From Haliotis rufescens (taxonomy: Eukaryota), in NCBI RefSeq assembly GCF_023055435.1, contig NW_025963902.1, positions 2,603,815 to 2,667,814 on the forward strand: a stretch of 64,000 bases of DNA, written 5' to 3'. Below the pieces are notes generated by a model. That model was not told the origin of the DNA. It did not search any database and saw nothing but the letters and a program-made list of their open reading frames with translations. A program made the translations under genes and the position numbers. Shown piece after piece: positions 7,975 through 62,804 of this stretch (position 1 is its first letter; each line of letters opens with the position of its first letter).

Positions 7975-9705
7975 AAACTGTTTACTATGTTTATCTAGTC
8001 TGTCATACAGACCCTGAAACAAATATATCTAATACAGCCAATGCAAGTCTATAATGTTTGGCAAGTCTAGATTACTGCAGTGTCTGAAAATGAAAAAAAT
8101 CTCTGGGCTCCTTTTTATTATATTTCATAACTATAATTTAACAAAAGTTTTTTTCTGTGAAATATGTTCATTTCAGAGACTAGATGTTAGTCTAATGTAA
8201 CAATAATGTTTCTCATCAAAAACCTTTTTTCTTATCGTATTTCGATATAAGAATGAAATTGGATGATAAATAAAATCTCTCTCGTGTCTTTTGATATCAA
8301 ATATATCAACACTCATTAATAAAAGTAGAAAAACACGATATCAAATATATCAACACTCGTTAATAAAAGTGGAAAAACTTTTCAACTTTTATCAACTCGA
8401 GTTGATAGATCTATATTTGATATCAAAAGATACTTGGGTGAGATCCTCGATAAAATAGTACTTAAAAGATCCGATTTGAATGAAATTGTCTGTAACACAG
8501 CTACTTTGAGGGCGATTTTGTGATTTTACTAATCATGCACTTAACTTTTTAGAAGATACATCACATCAGTATTTATCATAGCCAGCTAGTGACCTGACTG
8601 ACCTCTATCACCTCTAGCCGAGAGTCTAATGGGGGCCGAGGCTACAGTCTGGACCATCCCCACTCCAGTAATGAGCCAGTACTGGGCTACTCAATGATCT
8701 GATAGAACTCAGGGACTCCAGTAATGAGCCAGTACTGGGCTACTCAATGATCTGATAGAACTCAGGGACTCCAGTAATGAGCCAGTACTGGGCTACTCAA
8801 TGATCTTTAGAACTCAGGGACTTCAGTAATAAGCCAGTACTGGGCCACTCAATGATCTGGTAGAACTCAGGGACTTCAGTGATGAGCCAGTACTAGGCTA
8901 CTCAATGATCTTTAGAACTCAGGGACTTCAGTAATAAGCCAGTACTGGGCCACTCAATGATCTTGTAGAACTCAGGGACTTCAGTAATAAGCCAGTACTG
9001 GGCCACTCAATGATCTGGTAGAACTCAAAACTGTTTACTATGTTTATCTAGTCTGTCATACAGACCCTGAAACAAATATATCTAATACAGCCAATGCAAG
9101 TCTATAATGTTTGGCAAGTCTAGATTACTGCAGTGTCTGAAAATGAAAAAAATCTCTGGGCTCCTTTTTATTATATTTCAAAACTATAATTTAACAAAAG
9201 TTTTTTTCTGTGAAATATGTTCATTTCAGAGACTAGATGTTAGTCTAATGTAACAATAATGTTTCTCATCAAAAACCTTTTTTCTTATCGTATTTCGATA
9301 TAAGAATGAAATTGGATGATAAATAAAATCTCTCTCGTGTCTTTTGATATCAAATATATCAACACTCATTAATAAAAGTAGAAAAACACGATATCAAATA
9401 TATCAACACTCGTTAATAAAAGTGGAAAAACTTTTCAACTTTTATCATCTCGAGTTGATAGATCTATATTTGATATCAAAAGACACTTGGGTGAGATCCT
9501 CGATAAAATAGTACTTAAAAGATCCGATTTGAATGAAATTGTCTGTAACACAGCTACTTTGAGGGCGATTTTGTGATTTTAGTAATCATGCACTTAACTT
9601 TTTAGAAGATACATCACATCAGTATTTATCATAGCCAGCTAGTGACCTGACTGACCTCTATCACCTCTAGCCGAGAGTCTGATGGGGGCCTAGGCTACAG
9701 TCTGG
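7975..9705. repeat. tandem duplication: 665-bp unit at 7975-8640 and 9036-9705 (near-identical) separated by the 60-bp minisatellite; unit contains internal 45-bp duplication and a caactcgagttg palindrome
   Basis: aaaactgtttactatgtttatctagtctgtcatacagaccctg... recurs at 9036; gatatcaaatatatcaacactcgttaataaaagt motif. Confidence 0.85.
8640..9030. repeat. 60-bp minisatellite x~6.5 (ccagtaatgagccagtactgggctactcaatgatctgatagaactcagggact)
   Basis: period 60 verified (8681/8741); lies between two copies of a 665-bp direct repeat. Confidence 0.85.
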
Positions 9706-21683: not shown

Positions 21684-21717
<34 letters not shown>

Positions 21718-32374: not shown

Positions 32375-33050
32375 CGTAACTCACTCCGTACCATCACACA
32401 TCATCACATCACTCACACCACAATCACACATCACCGTAACATCACTCACAGCACCATCACACGTCACCGTAACATCACTCACACCACCATCACACGTCAC
32501 CGTAACATCACTCACACCTACCATCACACATCATCACAACATCGCTCACACCACCATCACACATGACCGTAACATCACTCACACCACCATCACACATGAC
32601 CGTAACATCACTCACACCACCATCACACATCACCGTAACATCACTCACACCACCATCACACATCACTGTAACATCACTCACACAACCATCACACATCACC
32701 GTAACATCACTCACACCACCATCACACATCACCGTAACATCACTCACACCACCATCACACATGACCGTAACATCACTCACACCACCATCACACATCACCG
32801 TAACATCACTCACACCACCATCACACATCACCGTAACATCACTCACACAACCATCACACATCACCGTAACATCACTCACACCACCATCACACATCACCGT
32901 AACATCACTCACACCACCATCACACATGACCGTAACATCACTCACACCCATCATCACACATCACCATAACATCATGCACACCAACCATCACACAACACCA
33001 TAACATCGCTCACACCAACCATCACACGTAATCAAGGTAACACGTTCCTT
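32375..33050. repeat. 33-bp minisatellite (~20 copies; accgtaacatcactcacaccaccatcacacatc) in MVP intron 6, starting ~20 bp after the exon 6 donor
   Basis: direct reading; both strands give long artefactual ORFs (11-aa periodic peptides). Confidence 0.9.
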
Positions 33051-47100: not shown

Positions 47101-47445
47101 AGATGTCAAATATTTCAACACTCTGGATGAAATGTTGATATCAAATATATCAACACTTGTGGATGAAAGTTTGATATCAAATATATCAACACTCGTGAAT
47201 GAAAGTTTGATATCAAATATATCAACATTCATGCATGAAAGTTTGATATGAAATATATCAACACTAATGCATGAAAGATTGCTATCAAATATATCAACAC
47301 TCGTTGATGAAAGTTTGATATGAAAAATATCAACACTTGTGGATGAAAGTTTGATATGAAATACATGAACACTCGTGGATGAAAGTTTGATATGAAATAT
47401 ATCAACACTCGTGGATGAAAGTTTCATATCAAATATCCTCGGCAA
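47101..47445. repeat. 36-bp tandem repeat x~9.5 (gatatcaaatatatcaacactcgtggatgaaagttt) sharing the gatatcaaatatatcaacactcgt motif with the 8.3-kb and 9.4-kb element
   Basis: period 36 verified (47136/47172); followed by tttgatatcagaagacactcgagtgagat resembling 8420-8450. Confidence 0.8.
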
Positions 47446-51100: not shown

Positions 51101-51824
51101 TGAGTCTCTGGCTGTGATAGGAAGGTTTGGGGAGAGGATGTCGAAGGCGTCAATACATGACATGAGTTCATCCCTGCAATATTTCACAATACCAATCTTG
51201 CTTGGTATGCCATATGGGTTATATCACAAGTAATCTTTTCCTGTAACCATGGAAACCTGAACTATTAGAATAATTTCAAATAAAGATGATAAGATAATAA
51301 AGGATATGTCTTCCACCTCACTTTTCTAAAAATGTGTGTTTGTTTATTACTGCCTATGTTGGCGATCAGTGTTAAAACAGTGCATCGTTTCTTCACGCTT
51401 AGAATTTCCTATGTACACTACTTAGTTCTCACTCATAAATAGAATATATATAACATTACAATCTGCCATCAAGGTGTCATTGAAAACACTAACAAATAGA
51501 TGTCAGTGTACATCATTGTATCATCTAACACAGAAGTTCTCAAAGAAAAGGATATATGCACAAACAATTTGAATACAGAAACAGTTTATTTACAAGAGAT
51601 CTCATGCACGTACTAGAGATGAGGCAGGTTTGTAACTCGCATTCTGATTGGTTAGTTAGACTGAATAGAGGAGCAATCAAATTATGAACATCAAGGGTGG
51701 GTAATTTGAGATCACGGGAATGGATCCCGGGGATAGTGTAGGATAGTGTAAGAAATACAAACCCTGGAGATATAGAGAATGAGGATTGTGTTTATTGGGT
51801 GGCTGTACTGAAACATTCTTGGCA

Positions 51825-52230
51825 TCTCTAGTAACACCCCATCTCTAGTAACACCCCATCTCTAGTAACACCCCATCTCTAGTAACACCCCATCTCTAGT
51901 AACAGCCCATCTATAGTAACAGCCCATCTCTAGTAACACCCCATCTCTAGTAACAGCCCATCTCTAGTAACAGCCCATCTATAGTAACAGCCCATCTCTA
52001 GTAACACCCCATCTCTAGTAACAGCCCATCTATAGTAACAGCCCATCTCTAGTAACACCCCCATCTATAGTAACTCCCCAAATCTAGTAACAGCCCATCT
52101 CTAGTAACACCCCATCTCTAGTAACACCCCCATCTCTGGTAACAGCCCATCTCTAGTAACACCCCATCTCTAGTAACACCCCCATCTCTAGTAACACCCC
52201 ATCTCTAGTAACACCCCCATCTTGTTGTGC
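51825..52230. repeat. 17-bp satellite x~24 (agtaacaccccatctct / agtaacagcccatctat variants)
   Basis: direct reading. Confidence 0.9.
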
Positions 52231-53460: not shown

Positions 53461-53639
53461 CTATGACCGGAACGTGTGAACAACGCGCACCACGTACTGT
53501 CGGCACATGGGGCACTCGGCGAGGCGCTTGCCGCAGGATGTGCACGTGATCATGTGACCACACTCCAGTAGAACACAGTCTATAGTATTGTCCATGCATA
53601 TCTTACACAGGTCCTGCTCAGAACTGGTGGTTGTCCCTG
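53461..53639 (-). CDS. RNF34/RFFL-like, terminal RING-finger exon ([58 protein letters not shown]; TAG at 53463-53461)
   Basis: ttcctttccag acceptor; C3HC4 RING nearly identical to human RNF34 C-terminus [49 protein letters not shown]. Confidence 0.85.
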
Positions 53640-54085: not shown

Positions 54086-56630
54086 CAAAGAGTGAATGAC
54101 ACTTAATCAAAACCTGATTAACATGCTGTAAGCTCACTGATACCCTTTGCCAGCTGAGTAGGCTGGTTAACCTCAGATTCTCTGGGGTTTTCCTTTTGCT
54201 TTTATTGAATTACAAAACAAACGACACTGTAAAACTGTGAAGTCGCTAGTTGACCACTTGAAAGACATGTATGGAAATGCAATTGGTTCACGATGTAAGT
54301 AAACCCTTCACGGATTGAACTTAAGTCCAATTTTTTATCATGGAAACCAGAAAAAAATCAAATTCAAATTCAAATTTTTCTAGTGGCATGGGATAATAAG
54401 GTATTTGCTGTTTTTTGTCTGTCTTTTTGTCTTCTTTTTTTTTTGGGGGGGGGGGATTTTATAACAAATTGACATTTAACTAATACACGGATGTAATGTT
54501 GAATGTTCTTATCAAGAGCATGTTCAATACTCAGAGGTTATCATGTGGCAGTTTTCATATCTTACCCCATATCAAATCCAAGACCCCATATCAGCTGTCT
54601 TGGGTTGATGTGAGGTATGATATGGAAACTGCCATATAATAATCTTTTTATCATATATCATAACATCAAATGGTAAAATGTTTCTGTTTGAAAGGGAATG
54701 CAATACTTTTTCATCGTTTGGAAAACATTGTCTCTGATAGCTAGCTGAGCAGACACACAGACAAGGGACATCACTCTAATTTCTTACCACCCAGGCTGAT
54801 ATCAATTGCCCATCCAAAATGCTTGATAAGTTTTATCAGATACGGGTCAGGTTATTACACCCCCTGTGATATGACTATCTCCATGTTGGCTCTATTGCAC
54901 ATGCCAAGAGCATCATATCACTGAAAGGAATGTGATAAAATATATTACATATACTACCAGAGCTCCAGATAACCTTTTGAGCAATTGAGTTTATACTCAA
55001 GGCTTTCTATCTTAATTGGGTTATTACATTTTTCATTGGAAAACCAATATTTATTCACTCATCTATTCATCACTCTATTGAGTTTTATCCAAATTAGTGA
55101 CCCTTTTAAGATTTAAAAAAAAATGAAATAATGTTTCAGATGTATATAACTGTTCTAAATATATAGGCTTAACTGAAAGTAAATTAGCTCGTAACTGTGT
55201 TTCGGAAATTTGCACGCATGCTGAAAAAGCTTCATTGGGTATTTAAGCGCACTGTTTTTATACATTAGAGTTTTTCATTTAACGCATGCGCTTCTGTATG
55301 CAAGTTAACTGAAAAAAATTGTTGGGTTTTTTTTTTTTGGGGGGGGGGGGGGGGTATTTTATGCAAATACACTGCTTATCTGTAGCTCTGTACTACTCAA
55401 AAGAACTTGAAGAAAACCAAATGTTTTCATGTTACTATAGTTAATCAGTCATACCATGAAAGACCAACTATAGTCATATAAAAAAATGGGGTGTTTTTAA
55501 AAAAAAAATTTAGTAGGACATATTAGAAGTCGAACATGTCATATTTAAGAGCCGTATTCAATGGGAGGAGTTATTGGGCCAATACATCATGACACATATA
55601 AACTAGATGAAATAATGTTGGAACAAGGCTTAAACCGACCAAAGGATGGCCATCTTGATAGACAGCCATTCGATCAATGACCACAGAACACTATTTATAC
55701 TTACTTAATTTATCTGCATTCTCTCTCATCTTTTCAGCTGCAAATTGAGGAAAGAAATGTAAGAAGGGACTAAACAATGACCCAAAACCAGCTCCACTGA
55801 CCTGCTCTCTAACAGGTCAGGCGAAATGGGGTTTAATGTCGTGTCCAAGATTATTGCACGTATATAGCAACGTACATGCACGTTTGTGTGGGTGTGTGGC
55901 TGCATGTACTAGTCCGGACTGATGCCAATTTATAGTGCTAGCCCGGGTACTGAGACCATGCCACAGTTTAACATGAATACCCCACTCAGACACAGTATAC
56001 GCCAGACAGGGTAACAACAAGTACCATCTGTTAACATCTTTTGGTATGACGTGGCCGGGGATCGAACCGCGGACTTTCCGCTCTCAGGACGGAAGCTCTA
56101 CCACTAGACCACGGCTGTGCTCTAGGACAGGAATGGTTACACTTTTCTGCAAGTGTTCTATGGCACAGTAAGGAAAATTCAGAACTGTTTCTTCTCCAGC
56201 ATTACTTCTGTGACATGAAGTATGTTCATAACGTTCTAATATTGCAATGAGCCAGCAATGTCACATTTGGGGACACTAGAACTGGAACTCATGTATTGTA
56301 CACACGTGGGATGTTTAACCCAGCACTGTGGCGTTACAAGCCAACGCTTTCATCATTGAGCTACCCCAGTGCCTCTTTTTTCTGTCCCAAAGGCTGTGTT
56401 CTTCACTTAGATGAGGCTGCTGAAACTCTTTTTGAAATGTTTCAAAATGGAACCTCTCCATGCCTGTAGCAAGGGCTACAATATTACTCCTGTCAATGTA
56501 TCAGTGTCCATTCATCCTCAGCTCCCCGGGGAGTATACAACCCCATATAAAGATATGATGTGCGCCAAAGCAGGCAGGTTGTATTTGGACAGAATATACC
56601 GAATGTCGCGTTGAATAATTCCTTGTTTAC

Positions 56631-56832
56631 CTTTGTCTTTGTTGGACTGTTCTTCATTCCACAGCCGCTTCACTCTATCAGTGAGTTCCGTCTTTTCACA
56701 ACACCCCTTGTAATCGACAAAGTTGTTTGCAAGGACCTCTTTGAGTTGCCTGACCGTCAGTGTGTCGACTTCCTCCACGGAGGCAATATTTTCAAGCCTC
56801 ATACGTGGGACTCGGTCTAACGTTGGCGACTC
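56631..56832 (-). CDS. RNF34/RFFL-like, SAP-like exon (ESPTLDRVPRMRLENIASVEEVDTLTVRQLKEVLANNFVDYKGCCEKTELTDRVKRLWNEEQSNKDK-)
   Basis: tattgcag acceptor, aag|GTAAAC donor; near-identical to human RNF34 [36 protein letters not shown]. Confidence 0.8.
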
Positions 56833-58215: not shown

Positions 58216-58302
58216 CTGCATGGGTTCCTCTGGAGACGGGACACTGTCTCTCTGTGTGTCTGTCGGGGGCACATCGGGGACACTGTCTTCTCTCATCCGC
58301 TC
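58216..58302 (-). CDS. RNF34/RFFL-like, putative small middle exon (ERMREDSVPDVPPTDTQRDSVPSPEEPMQ; 87 nt, phase 0-0)
   Basis: tttacag acceptor and cag|GTACTC donor; keeps frame between exon 2 and the SAP-like exon; low-complexity Ser/Pro/acidic linker as in RNF34, but weak donor and no direct homology, so tentative. Confidence 0.4.
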
Positions 58303-58355
58303 CTGTAAATAAACTCTGATGCAGACAAATTCATCTTTGAAAGTAGACAAACAGA

Positions 58356-59765
58356 TTTACAGCTCTCTCAAGTTCCGCCTACCTGAGTTGATTGACATAT
58401 ACATCATCTTCAACTTCAATAGAAGCAAGTGTTACCACCAACTGCTGCACCAGTCTCTCAAGCTCCACCTCTCTGAGTTGATTGACATTTATCCATCCCT
58501 CCCACTCTACTCAACACAAGCAAGTCTTACCACCAACTGCTGCACCAGTCTCTCAAGCTCCACCTCTCTGAGTTGATTGACATTTATACATCCCTCCCAC
58601 TCTACTCAACACAAGCAAGTCTTACCACCAACTGCTGCACCAGTCTCTCAAGCTCCACCTCTCTGAGTTGATTGACATTTATACATCCCTCCCACTCTAC
58701 TCAACACAAGCAAGTCTTACCACCAACTGCTGCACCAGTCTCTCAAGCTCCACCTCTCAGAGTTGATTGACATTTATACATCCCTCCCACTCTAATCAAC
58801 ACAAGCAAGTCTTACCACCAACTGCTGCACCAGTCTCTCAAGCTCCACCTCTCTGAGTTGATTGACATTTATACATCCCTCCCACTCTACTCAACACAAG
58901 CAAGTCTTACCACCAACTGCTGCACCAGTCTCTCTAGCTCCGCCTCTCTGAGTTGATTGACATTTATACATCCCTCCCACTCTACTCAACACAAGCAAGT
59001 CTTACCACCAACTGCTGCACCAGTCTCTCAAGCTCCACCTCTCTGAGTTGACTGACATTTATACATCCCTCCCACTCTACTCAACACAAGCAAGTCTTAC
59101 CACCAACTGCTGTACCAGTCTCTCAAGCTCCACCTCTCTGAGTTGATTGACATTTATACATCCCTCCCACTCTACTCAACACAAGCAAGTCTTACCACCA
59201 ACTGCTGCACCAGTCTCTCTAGCTCCACCTCTCTGAGTTGATTGACATTTATACATCCCTCCCACTCTACTCAACACAAACAAGTCTTACCACCAACTGC
59301 TGCACCAGTCTCTCAAGCTCCACCTCTCTGAGTTGATTGACATTTATACATCCCTCCCACTCTACTCAACACAAGCAAGTCTTACCACCAACTGCTGCAC
59401 CAGTCTCTCAAGCTCCACCTCTCTGAGTTGATTGACATTTATACATCCCTCCCACTCTACTCAACACAAGCAAGTCTTACCACCAACTGCTGCACCAGTC
59501 TCTCAAGCTCCACCTCTCTGAGTTGATTGACATTTATACATCCCTCCCACTCTACTCAACACAAGCAAGTCTTACCACCAACTGCTGCACCAGTCTCTCA
59601 AGCTCCACCTCTCTGAGTTGATTGACATTTATACATCCCTCCCACTCTACTCAACACAAGCAAGTCTTACCACCAACTGCTGCACCAGTCTCTCAAGCTC
59701 CACCTCTCTGAGTTGATTGACATTTATACATCCCTCCCACTCTACTCAACACAAGCAAGTCTTAC
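58356..59765. repeat. 95-bp tandem repeat, ~15 copies, filling intron 2 of the RNF34-like gene; unit = copy of exon-2 3' end plus GTAAGA donor
   Basis: period 95 verified at 58521/58616/58711; minus-strand unit ..agactggtgcagcagttggtgGTAAGActtgcttgtgttgag.. matches the exon 2/intron boundary. Confidence 0.85.
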
Positions 59766-60059
59766 CACCAACTGCTGCACCAGTCTTTCATGCTCAGCCT
59801 CTGAGTTTGAAACAGATCCTCGGCTGTAGTGGCGTATCACAAGGTCAATGAGGTCATGTTTTTCACGGCACATATTGGTTGGAATGTTGTGGCTGTCAAG
59901 GAAACATCTCATGTCCTTGACCTTCCACTCTTGCAAGATTTGGCGGCTAAAGTTCCCAGAGACAATAATTCGGCACTTTTGACATTGTCTATCACGTTTA
60001 TTTGCCTCTTTTGGCAGACAAGTTGAGCAAAATTGACGTTTACAATCTCTGCACATTTT
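59766..60059 (-). CDS. RNF34/RFFL-like, coding exon 2 (KMCRDCKRQFCSTCLPKEANKRDRQCQKCRIIVSGNFSRQILQEWKVKDMRCFLDSHNIPTNMCREKHDLIDLVIRHYSRGSVSNSEAEHERLVQQLV)
   Basis: ttctcttccag acceptor; GGTG|GTAAGA donor; aligns to human RNF34 VCCDCKKDFCSVCS..CSTCH..LKVKDLRQYLILRNIPIDTCREKEDLVDLVLCHH (FYVE-like plus helical region). Confidence 0.8.
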
Positions 60060-62681: not shown

Positions 62682-62804
62682 CTTCCGTTTGAAGATTGTG
62701 AACTCCGTAGCACATGACTCACAGGCCATGGTCTTTGACAAAATTTCTTGACCGTTGACAACTGTCCCTGGATGCTGCTGGCCGCCCACGGCTCCCGCCC
62801 CCAT
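62682..62804 (-). CDS. RNF34/RFFL (CARP)-like RING E3 ligase, coding exon 1 (MGAGAVGGQQHPGTVVNGQEILSKTMACESCATEFTIFKRK; ATG at 62804-62802; donor GTATGT)
   Basis: in-frame TGA 6 codons upstream of ATG; matches human RNF34 MGTGAVRGQQS...CKACGLSFSVFRKK (first Cys pair of the FYVE-like finger). Confidence 0.75.

Follow-up and report, generated by a model that had tools for sequence, protein, structure and literature searches.

Intron 2 of an RNF34-like gene of Haliotis rufescens consists almost entirely of a 95-bp tandem repeat, whose first copy begins within exon 2 and extends across the exon-intron boundary, and the 5' splice site of exon 2 recurs along the intron. The gene is located on the minus strand of a 64-kb stretch of DNA (contig NW_025963902.1, positions 2,603,815 to 2,667,814), subsequently designated the window; all positions refer to the window unless stated otherwise. 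We consider it likely that the array is an intronic minisatellite which is both neutral and long-lived, that its first monomer happens to lie over the boundary and that only the upstream-most donor is chosen. No paper on this abalone locus was found in the literature searched.

A 95-bp minisatellite starts within exon 2 of the RNF34-like gene

Tandem Repeats Finder (TRF) located the array at 58364-59807 on the minus strand, where it comprises 15.3 head-to-tail copies with 97% matches and 0% indels. Its score of 2669 is the highest among the 23 TRF rows of the window. The repeats were also counted by means of a 42-nt motif (AGACTGGTGCAGCAGTTGGTGGTAAGACTTGCTTGTGTTGAG), which covers the exon tail, the GTAAG of the donor and the first bases of the intron. 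On the minus strand, 14 matches with at most one mismatch were obtained at a spacing of exactly 95 nt; no match was detectable outside the array in the 64-kb window, and 100 dinucleotide-preserving shuffles yielded 0 matches. The 15th copy has kept the exon-derived part, carries the donor GTG/GTAACA (slashes denote splice positions; G+1 at 58435) and is decayed downstream thereof.

The array begins at 59807, i.e. 42 nt inside exon 2, and the repeat unit is accordingly composed of 42 nt derived from the exon and 53 nt derived from the intron. The last 42 nt of exon 2 (59807-59766) represent the exon-derived part of copy 1; when compared with the following repeats, their last 24 nt are identical, whereas the other 18 nt have diverged and include a 2-nt indel. 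Intron 2 has a length of 1463 nt, of which 1402 nt (96%) belong to the array. At its far end the array is closed by a terminal partial copy (…CTCAGGTAGGCGGAACTTGAGAGAGCTG; 58364-58392, minus strand), which corresponds to 0.3 of a unit and has the same end point in 4/4 Haliotis species. The gap between the array and exon 3 as delimited by TRF consists of 61 unique nt (58303-58363, minus strand), which end in TTTATTTACAG, are conserved in an alignment across Haliotis and presumably hold the branch point and the pyrimidine tract.

Two other explanations for the nature of the repeated sequence could be dismissed. A dispersed repeat or a satellite carried by a transposable element was rejected for the sequences addressed here: apart from the arrays themselves, a sensitive blastn search found no copy of the unit, either in the 64-kb window or in 47 kb of orthologous loci, and Rfam gave no match in the gene region. 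A coding sequence or overlapping gene within the array was likewise rejected, as the longest open stretch in any frame measures 70 codons and the additional copies show no coding constraint (see below).

The host gene encodes a predicted E3 ubiquitin ligase in six coding exons

The gene was delineated by tblastn with a human RNF34 sequence, which detected the exons for the FYVE/SAP region, the third domain and the RING finger on the minus strand. When the resulting exon model was used to search protein databases, 1597 homologues were obtained, with RNF34-like proteins from Haliotis cracherodii, H. asinina and H. rubra as the best matches; the top cluster also includes the H. rufescens protein XP_048257052.1. 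The coding sequence (CDS) of six exons, in which exon 2 ends at 59766, reproduces XP_048257052.1 (305 aa) residue for residue.

All six coding exons are on the minus strand. Exon 1 (62682-62804; ATG at 62804) encodes MGAGAV…TIFKRK in exact agreement with XP_048257052.1. Exon 2 (59766-60059; 294 nt) encodes aa 42-139 with the second half of the FYVE-like finger and the SAP_RNF34_RFFL domain, as judged by protein match and Pfam. Exon 3 (58216-58302; 87 nt; ERMREDSVPDVPPTDTQRDSVPSPEEPMQ) has phase 0 at both ends and was assigned by exact translation. Exon 4 (56631-56832), which encodes the rififylin-like third domain, and exon 6 (53461-53639), which encodes the RING finger and the stop codon, were recognized by tblastn, Pfam and translation. 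Exon 5 (55705-55737) is a micro-exon of 33 nt (EKMRENADKL), which was recovered from the Haliotis proteins and by translation. Pfam places SAP_RNF34_RFFL (PF23632) at aa 78-122 and thereby in exon 2, upstream of the array, while the rififylin-like third domain (PF22968, aa 184-230) and the RING finger (PF13920, aa 254-298) are encoded downstream of it; a FYVE match at aa 24-70 was weak. By this domain composition the gene is predicted to encode an E3 ubiquitin ligase of the RNF34/RFFL (CARP) type.

An earlier reading of this DNA from its sequence alone had proposed an RNF34-like gene on the minus strand, with an exon 2 ending at 59766, a following exon at 58302-58216 and, between them, about 15 units of 95 bp repeating the exon-2 tail together with the start of intron 2. 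All of this is borne out by the exon model, the Pfam domains, TRF and the motif count. Some of its figures need correction: the unit contains 42 nt of exon and 53 nt of intron instead of about 35 and 60 nt, and the array does end close to exon 3, albeit at a distance of 61 nt and not of about 50 bp.

The most upstream of 15 donors is used in the protein models

Exon 2 ends with …CAGCAGTTGGTG/GTAAGA at 59766. The authentic 5' splice site (GTG/GTAAGA; 59760-59768, minus strand; G+1 at 59765) is the site on which the RefSeq protein model relies. It matches the consensus CAG/GTAAGT at 6/9 positions, which are contiguous from -1 to +5. Motif counting and the register of the units revealed 14 pseudo-donors further downstream (58430-59673, minus strand). 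Of these, 13 read GTG/GTAAGA, with G+1 at 59670, 59575, 59480, 59385, 59290, 59195, 59100, 59005, 58910, 58815, 58720, 58625 and 58530, and the last one is the GTG/GTAACA of the decayed unit. Including the authentic site, the array therefore presents 14 GTAAG donors and one GTAAC, a slight departure from the roughly 15 near-identical donors of the sequence-only reading.

Identity of the CDS with XP_048257052.1 indicates use of the first donor, the protein being an annotation model and not a set of reads. The RefSeq proteins of H. cracherodii, H. asinina and H. rubra share this junction (…ERLVQQLV/ERMRED); no other end of exon 2 came to light. Protein fragments derived from abalone transcripts were sought with a 96-aa query spanning the junction, which gave nothing usable, and with the N-terminal 191 aa, which retrieved only the known RefSeq models and unrelated fragments.

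Translation beyond the first donor yields …LVQQLV-VRLACVE-stop, i.e. an in-frame TAG is met 8 codons on, and use of a later donor with retention of the intervening sequence would consequently truncate the protein. The in-frame stop had been recognized before; the accompanying claim that truncation occurs ahead of both the SAP and the RING domain is correct for the RING finger, but SAP_RNF34_RFFL is encoded upstream in exon 2. The acceptor of exon 3 is separated by 133 and 228 nt from the last two donors. All 15 donors are transcribed before this acceptor and distance is no bar, which means that a positional rule is needed to account for the choice of the first donor and that simple first-come-first-served pairing does not suffice.

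A probable single origin of the array in Haliotis and concerted evolution of its copies

The window was compared with the orthologous loci from three further species, namely H. asinina (L001), H. cracherodii (L002) and H. rubra (L003). A 95-bp array starting in the tail of exon 2 is present in 4/4 Haliotis species. TRF counts 15.3 copies in the H. rufescens window, 12.9 in H. rubra, 4.9 in H. asinina and 3.5 in H. cracherodii, and the corresponding numbers of donor copies are 15, 13, 5 and 4. The copy-number variation anticipated from the sequence is hence real at the level of species. Colinear alignment in 4/4 species extends over the final unit, the partial copy that closes the array and the unique sequence ahead of exon 3, and this common 3' boundary argues for a single origin before the four species split. 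The RefSeq model of H. rubra has a frameshifted RING finger and C-terminus (336 aa) and additionally contains VLQ after exon 3; these oddities probably reflect an error of assembly or model rather than biology.

The sequence from which the repeats were copied is old. Both the tail and the junction (…EHERLVQQLV/ERMRED) occur in the RefSeq proteins of the four Haliotis species, and the exon tail is still recognizable in the deep-sea snail Gigantopelta as EHERMVENLAQRMRQ. The orthologue of the scallop Pecten maximus possesses an intron at the corresponding place (…SSEVEDL/ESLSRQ…), and no tandem array was found in this gene. Taken together, these data indicate that exon tail and intron are old and that the repeats were copied from them. 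The reverse scenario, in which a repeat unit was captured as exon, was rejected on the same grounds, namely the conservation of the tail in Haliotis and Gigantopelta and the array-free intron of Pecten. A second match to the exon-2 tail in the Pecten locus was considered as a duplication and discarded, since it results from over-extension of a tblastn alignment into the intron.

Mean divergence of the units amounts to 0.055-0.14 within species as compared to 0.10-0.23 between species. The intron part of copy 1 (53 nt) is identical to the consensus of the inner copies in H. rufescens (0/53 differences) and in H. cracherodii, whereas 8-11/53 positions differ between the two clades. These patterns amount to concerted evolution, which includes the intron flank of the working splice site itself. 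Three non-consensus variants of the unit are common to the arrays of H. rufescens and H. cracherodii, suggesting that their common ancestor probably already carried several copies. When the extra copies of H. rufescens and H. rubra are compared, 6/42 positions differ in the exon-derived and 7/53 in the intron-derived part. The exon-derived part thus diverges as fast as the intron-derived part, which argues that the extra copies are free of coding constraint.

The array is of a type already described in human genes

In the human F7 gene, the first monomer of a 37-bp variable number tandem repeat lies over the boundary of exon 7 and intron 7 (intervening sequence 7, IVS7), so that 5-9 identical donors are generated and splicing uses the most upstream one alone (PMC1557585). 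Experiments proved that the F7 pseudo-sites, although functional, stay silent (Borensztajn et al. 2006, PMC1557585). Further cases are summarised in the same article (PMC1557585): the interferon-inducible gene IFI6 (6-16) has 25 pseudo-sites in intron 2 and CBS has 15-20 repeats in intron 13, and in both genes the first two pseudo-sites are also used, whereas the authentic site is used alone in LMNB2 (100-bp unit, 10-15 repeats) and in intron 4 of PDGF (81-bp unit, 16-18 repeats). The situation at the abalone locus had been regarded as rare, a view that does not hold given the same arrangement in these five genes.

The abalone array is of the F7 IVS7 type: its unit falls in the minisatellite range (about 10-100 bp) and is reiterated head to tail, the first monomer crosses the exon-intron boundary, and the exact donor recurs in the intron. 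As in F7, the identical pseudo-donors follow in tandem and, according to the RefSeq models, the upstream-most site is used; the copy number varies among the Haliotis species. There are also differences. The F7 unit includes only 4 nt of the exon and its donor, UGG/gugggu, is weak (PMC1557585), while the abalone unit of 95 bp contains 42 nt of exon, is present in 15 copies, carries a stronger GTAAG donor and resides in a mollusc. Moreover, variation in copy number is seen here between species only, and splicing is deduced from sequence and RefSeq models. In terms of unit length and copy number, LMNB2 and PDGF are closest to the 95-bp x 15 array, and for both genes only use of the authentic donor is reported; they are vertebrate genes that share no sequence relationship with the RNF34-like gene.

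A model for origin and splicing of the array

Our preferred reading, the neutral minisatellite with choice of the upstream-most donor, builds on the structure of the array, its orthology and shared origin in four species, the homogenisation of its units, their lack of coding constraint and the agreement of the first-donor model with the RefSeq proteins. According to this model, a tandem duplication in an ancestor of Haliotis would have copied a 95-bp segment, to which exon 2 contributed its last ~42 nt and the intron its first 53 nt. Unequal exchange or replication slippage would then have made the array grow and shrink independently in each lineage, while keeping the units alike by concerted evolution. 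In the transcript, the array would be removed as part of intron 2, the spliceosome joining the donor at 59765 to the acceptor of exon 3 at 58303. We propose that the upstream-most donor is chosen because it is the only one that closes an exon of normal size (294 nt) and keeps the frame; under a 5'-to-3' search, it would also be met first. By analogy with human F7 IVS7, donor choice may follow a 5'-to-3' scanning or an exon-definition rule, and the other 14 copies would be silent pseudo-sites. If a pseudo-donor were used with retention of the preceding sequence, translation would stop 8 codons later and the mRNA would probably be degraded by nonsense-mediated decay (NMD).

Several observations weigh against this model. 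The evidence for donor usage consists of RefSeq protein models, which are computational, and isoforms with premature stops would escape such models, being removed by NMD. The geometry of the last two donors forbids no use of these sites. The scanning rule was derived from mammalian cells and not from molluscs. Furthermore, isoform X2 of H. asinina uses a downstream copy, and "silent" may not hold everywhere. Finally, selection could likewise account for the retention of the array throughout the genus.

An annotated isoform of H. asinina can be modelled with a repeat copy as mini-exon

RefSeq lists two isoforms of the RNF34-like protein of H. asinina, which are of equal length and differ only at the tail encoded by exon 2. 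X1 has the tail …SNSEVEHERLVQQLV (VEHERLVQQLV), while X2 (XP_067668268.1) has …SNSEAECERLVQQLV (AECERLVQQLV) and reads …SNSE-AECERLVQQLV-ERMRED…. In L001, no sequence other than copies 4 and 5 of the repeat encodes AECERLVQQLV. X2 could be reproduced exactly by a GT-AG splice from GAG/GTTGAG within exon 2 (after L001:4262) to AAG/GCGGAA (L001:4550 or 4645), followed by a 33-nt mini-exon from copy 4 or 5, whose own GTAAG donor is then joined to exon 3 (all within L001 4262-4812). The additional splice removes a whole number of repeat units, and frame and length (305 aa) are restored. At the position of the internal donor, H. asinina alone of the four species has GT, the others having GC.

X2 is an annotation model that relies on a weak internal donor (GAG/GTTGAG), and it could also derive from reads of a variant allele that were aligned to the reference. 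An allele artefact is countered by the switch point of X2, which is pinned to a 3-nt window coinciding with the GT and the AG. The sequence-only reading had raised alternative or NMD isoforms. Use of a downstream copy in the X2 model lends this indirect support, but the X2 product is in frame and hence no NMD substrate.

X2 also bears on the idea that the array is an alternative-splicing module, whose copies act as in-frame 33-nt mini-exons, in place of the exon-2 tail or as an extension of it, or as poison exons or donors that tune the level of the RNF34-like protein through NMD. Apart from the exact reconstruction of X2 via copy 4 or 5 and its GTAAG donor, the idea receives support from the window itself, where every unit contains …CAGAGAG/GTGGAGCTTGAGAGACTGGTGCAGCAGTTGGTG/GTAAGA, i.e. 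a stop-free segment of 33 nt (VELERLVQQLV) that would be in frame after exon 2. However, the internal-donor position reads GAG/GC and not GT in the window, H. cracherodii and H. rubra, and only the proteins of H. asinina carry an isoform label in RefSeq. A mini-exon starting at the first AG of a unit (CTCAG/) would be 37 nt long and shift the frame, the pyrimidine tract upstream is poor, and the intron between consecutive mini-exons would measure only 62 nt. Nor are the pseudo-copies conserved to a greater extent in their exon-derived part. With the weakness of the X2 donor and the possible allelic origin of X2 added, we consider a splicing module unlikely.

Use of downstream copies has parallels in IFI6 and CBS, in which a donor is likewise reiterated many times and some downstream copies are used. 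In these genes the first two pseudo-donors are employed directly, whereas the H. asinina model involves copy 4 or 5 as a separate mini-exon following an extra splice in exon 2. A second parallel is provided by the Rogers model, which explains the creation of introns by tandem duplication of an exonic AGGT segment (Hellsten et al. 2011, PMC3265369; potato RNA-dependent RNA polymerase, PMC4974935). As in this model, X2 uses AG/GT in the upstream copy as donor and the homologous AG/G in the downstream copy as acceptor. In the window, the exon copy reads CAGAG/GCTGAG and lacks the GT, which is present in H. asinina only; with AGGC in its exon copy, a Rogers-type route is not open in the window species. 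In addition, the duplicated segment already included a working donor and intron sequence, and therefore the array lengthens an existing intron and creates no new one. Tandem duplication of exons can also give rise to mutually exclusive exons, as reportedly described by Kondrashov and Koonin in 2001 and by Letunic, Copley and Bork in 2002. The H. asinina array resembles such exons in that the duplicates offer alternative coding segments of equal length (VEHERLVQQLV in X1 and AECERLVQQLV in X2). It differs from them as the abalone duplicates comprise the exon tail and the donor only, not a whole exon with both splice sites, and lack coding constraint.

The array might be more than neutral filler and continually provide abalone with material for new exon structure, a view to which we assign a rather small probability. 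A single C-to-T change (GAG/GC to GAG/GT) in H. asinina would then have been enough to provide an alternative in-frame mini-exon, H. asinina would represent a natural, still polymorphic intermediate of a Rogers-type birth of introns or exons, and the 14 spare donors of H. rufescens could feed regulated unproductive splicing of the RNF34-like mRNA.

Persistence of the array does not require selection

It is also conceivable that selection maintains the array for a cis-acting role in the RNA, in which its row of binding sites for the U1 small nuclear ribonucleoprotein and their GA-rich flanks would strengthen the definition of exon 2, protect the nascent transcript or otherwise regulate its processing. 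The array has been retained ever since the four Haliotis species shared an ancestor, GTAAG is intact in nearly all copies of all species, and each unit contains purine-rich GAGAGAGG…GAGAGA tracts. However, unequal exchange homogenises the units and thereby accounts for intact donors even if selection is absent, and 4 versus 15 copies in close relatives (H. cracherodii versus the window) do not suggest a tuned dosage. An internal control is provided by an unrelated 17-bp minisatellite of 23 copies just 3' of the RNF34-like gene (51823-52222), which is found at the corresponding place in the three other species, too, and has thus persisted equally long. Its retention in four species implies that persistence of the 95-bp array needs no selection. 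This control argues only that selection is unneeded; the 95-bp array could still be under selection, but we regard its maintenance as a cis-acting element as improbable. Arrays that are long-lived and fast-changing are a general property of this genome, and overlap with a splice site is by itself no sign of selection.

An assembly artefact was rejected as highly implausible: although long near-identical arrays can be mis-sized and the copy number of the window comes from one sequence only, the same array occupies the same place in three independent assemblies of other species (GCA_037392515.2, GCA_022045235.1 and GCA_003918875.1), i.e. in four independent assemblies overall, and individual units of the window carry distinct point variants, as real sequence would.

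Other repeats in the window and at the orthologous loci

The window is rich in minisatellites, as reflected by its 23 TRF rows. The second largest array is a 33-bp x 19.3 minisatellite at 32390-33027. Two identical 44-bp x 2 arrays, at 8293-8378 and 9346-9431, lie on either side of a 53-bp x 6.9 array (8662-9027), and the start of the unit of the 8293-9431 arrays (GATATCAAATATATCAACACTC) is encountered again at 47102-47436 in a 36-bp x 9.3 array; these arrays may belong to a family of dispersed elements with internal tandem repeats. Introns 1 and 3 of the RNF34-like gene contain similar dispersed repeats (~60577-60473, 57447-57319 and 57107-56967), which read ITGLSGPDxIIYRxPSY in one frame, have no Rfam match at the gathering threshold and look like a SINE (short interspersed nuclear element) or another interspersed element. 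An uninterrupted run of 29 C is located at 21686-21714. At the H. cracherodii locus, a 76-bp x 14 array in intron 1 (L002 3758-4820) and a 22-bp x 28 array (L002 8630-9251) were detected; neither has a counterpart in the orthologous introns of the window despite the close kinship of the two species, and both were found in H. cracherodii only.

Implications

Nothing in these findings suggests a new mechanism or an altered function of the RNF34-like protein. In practical terms, the array constitutes a pitfall at the RNF34-like locus, both when genes are predicted and when spliced reads are aligned. It also provides a natural test case, in which 15 near-identical 5' splice sites compete for one acceptor. 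In comparison to human F7, the donor is stronger, the exon-derived part of 42 nt means that any enhancer in the exon tail has been copied as well, and the host is an invertebrate. What is added to the known cases is the series of 4, 5, 13 and 15 copies, the long exon-derived part and the repeat copy that appears as coding mini-exon in the H. asinina model. The four-species series from 4 to 15 copies allows the rule that the most upstream site wins to be tested outside mammals and against copy number. If X2 of H. asinina is confirmed, one point mutation would have converted the array into an alternative coding segment, illustrating how new exon-intron structure may arise from tandem duplication.

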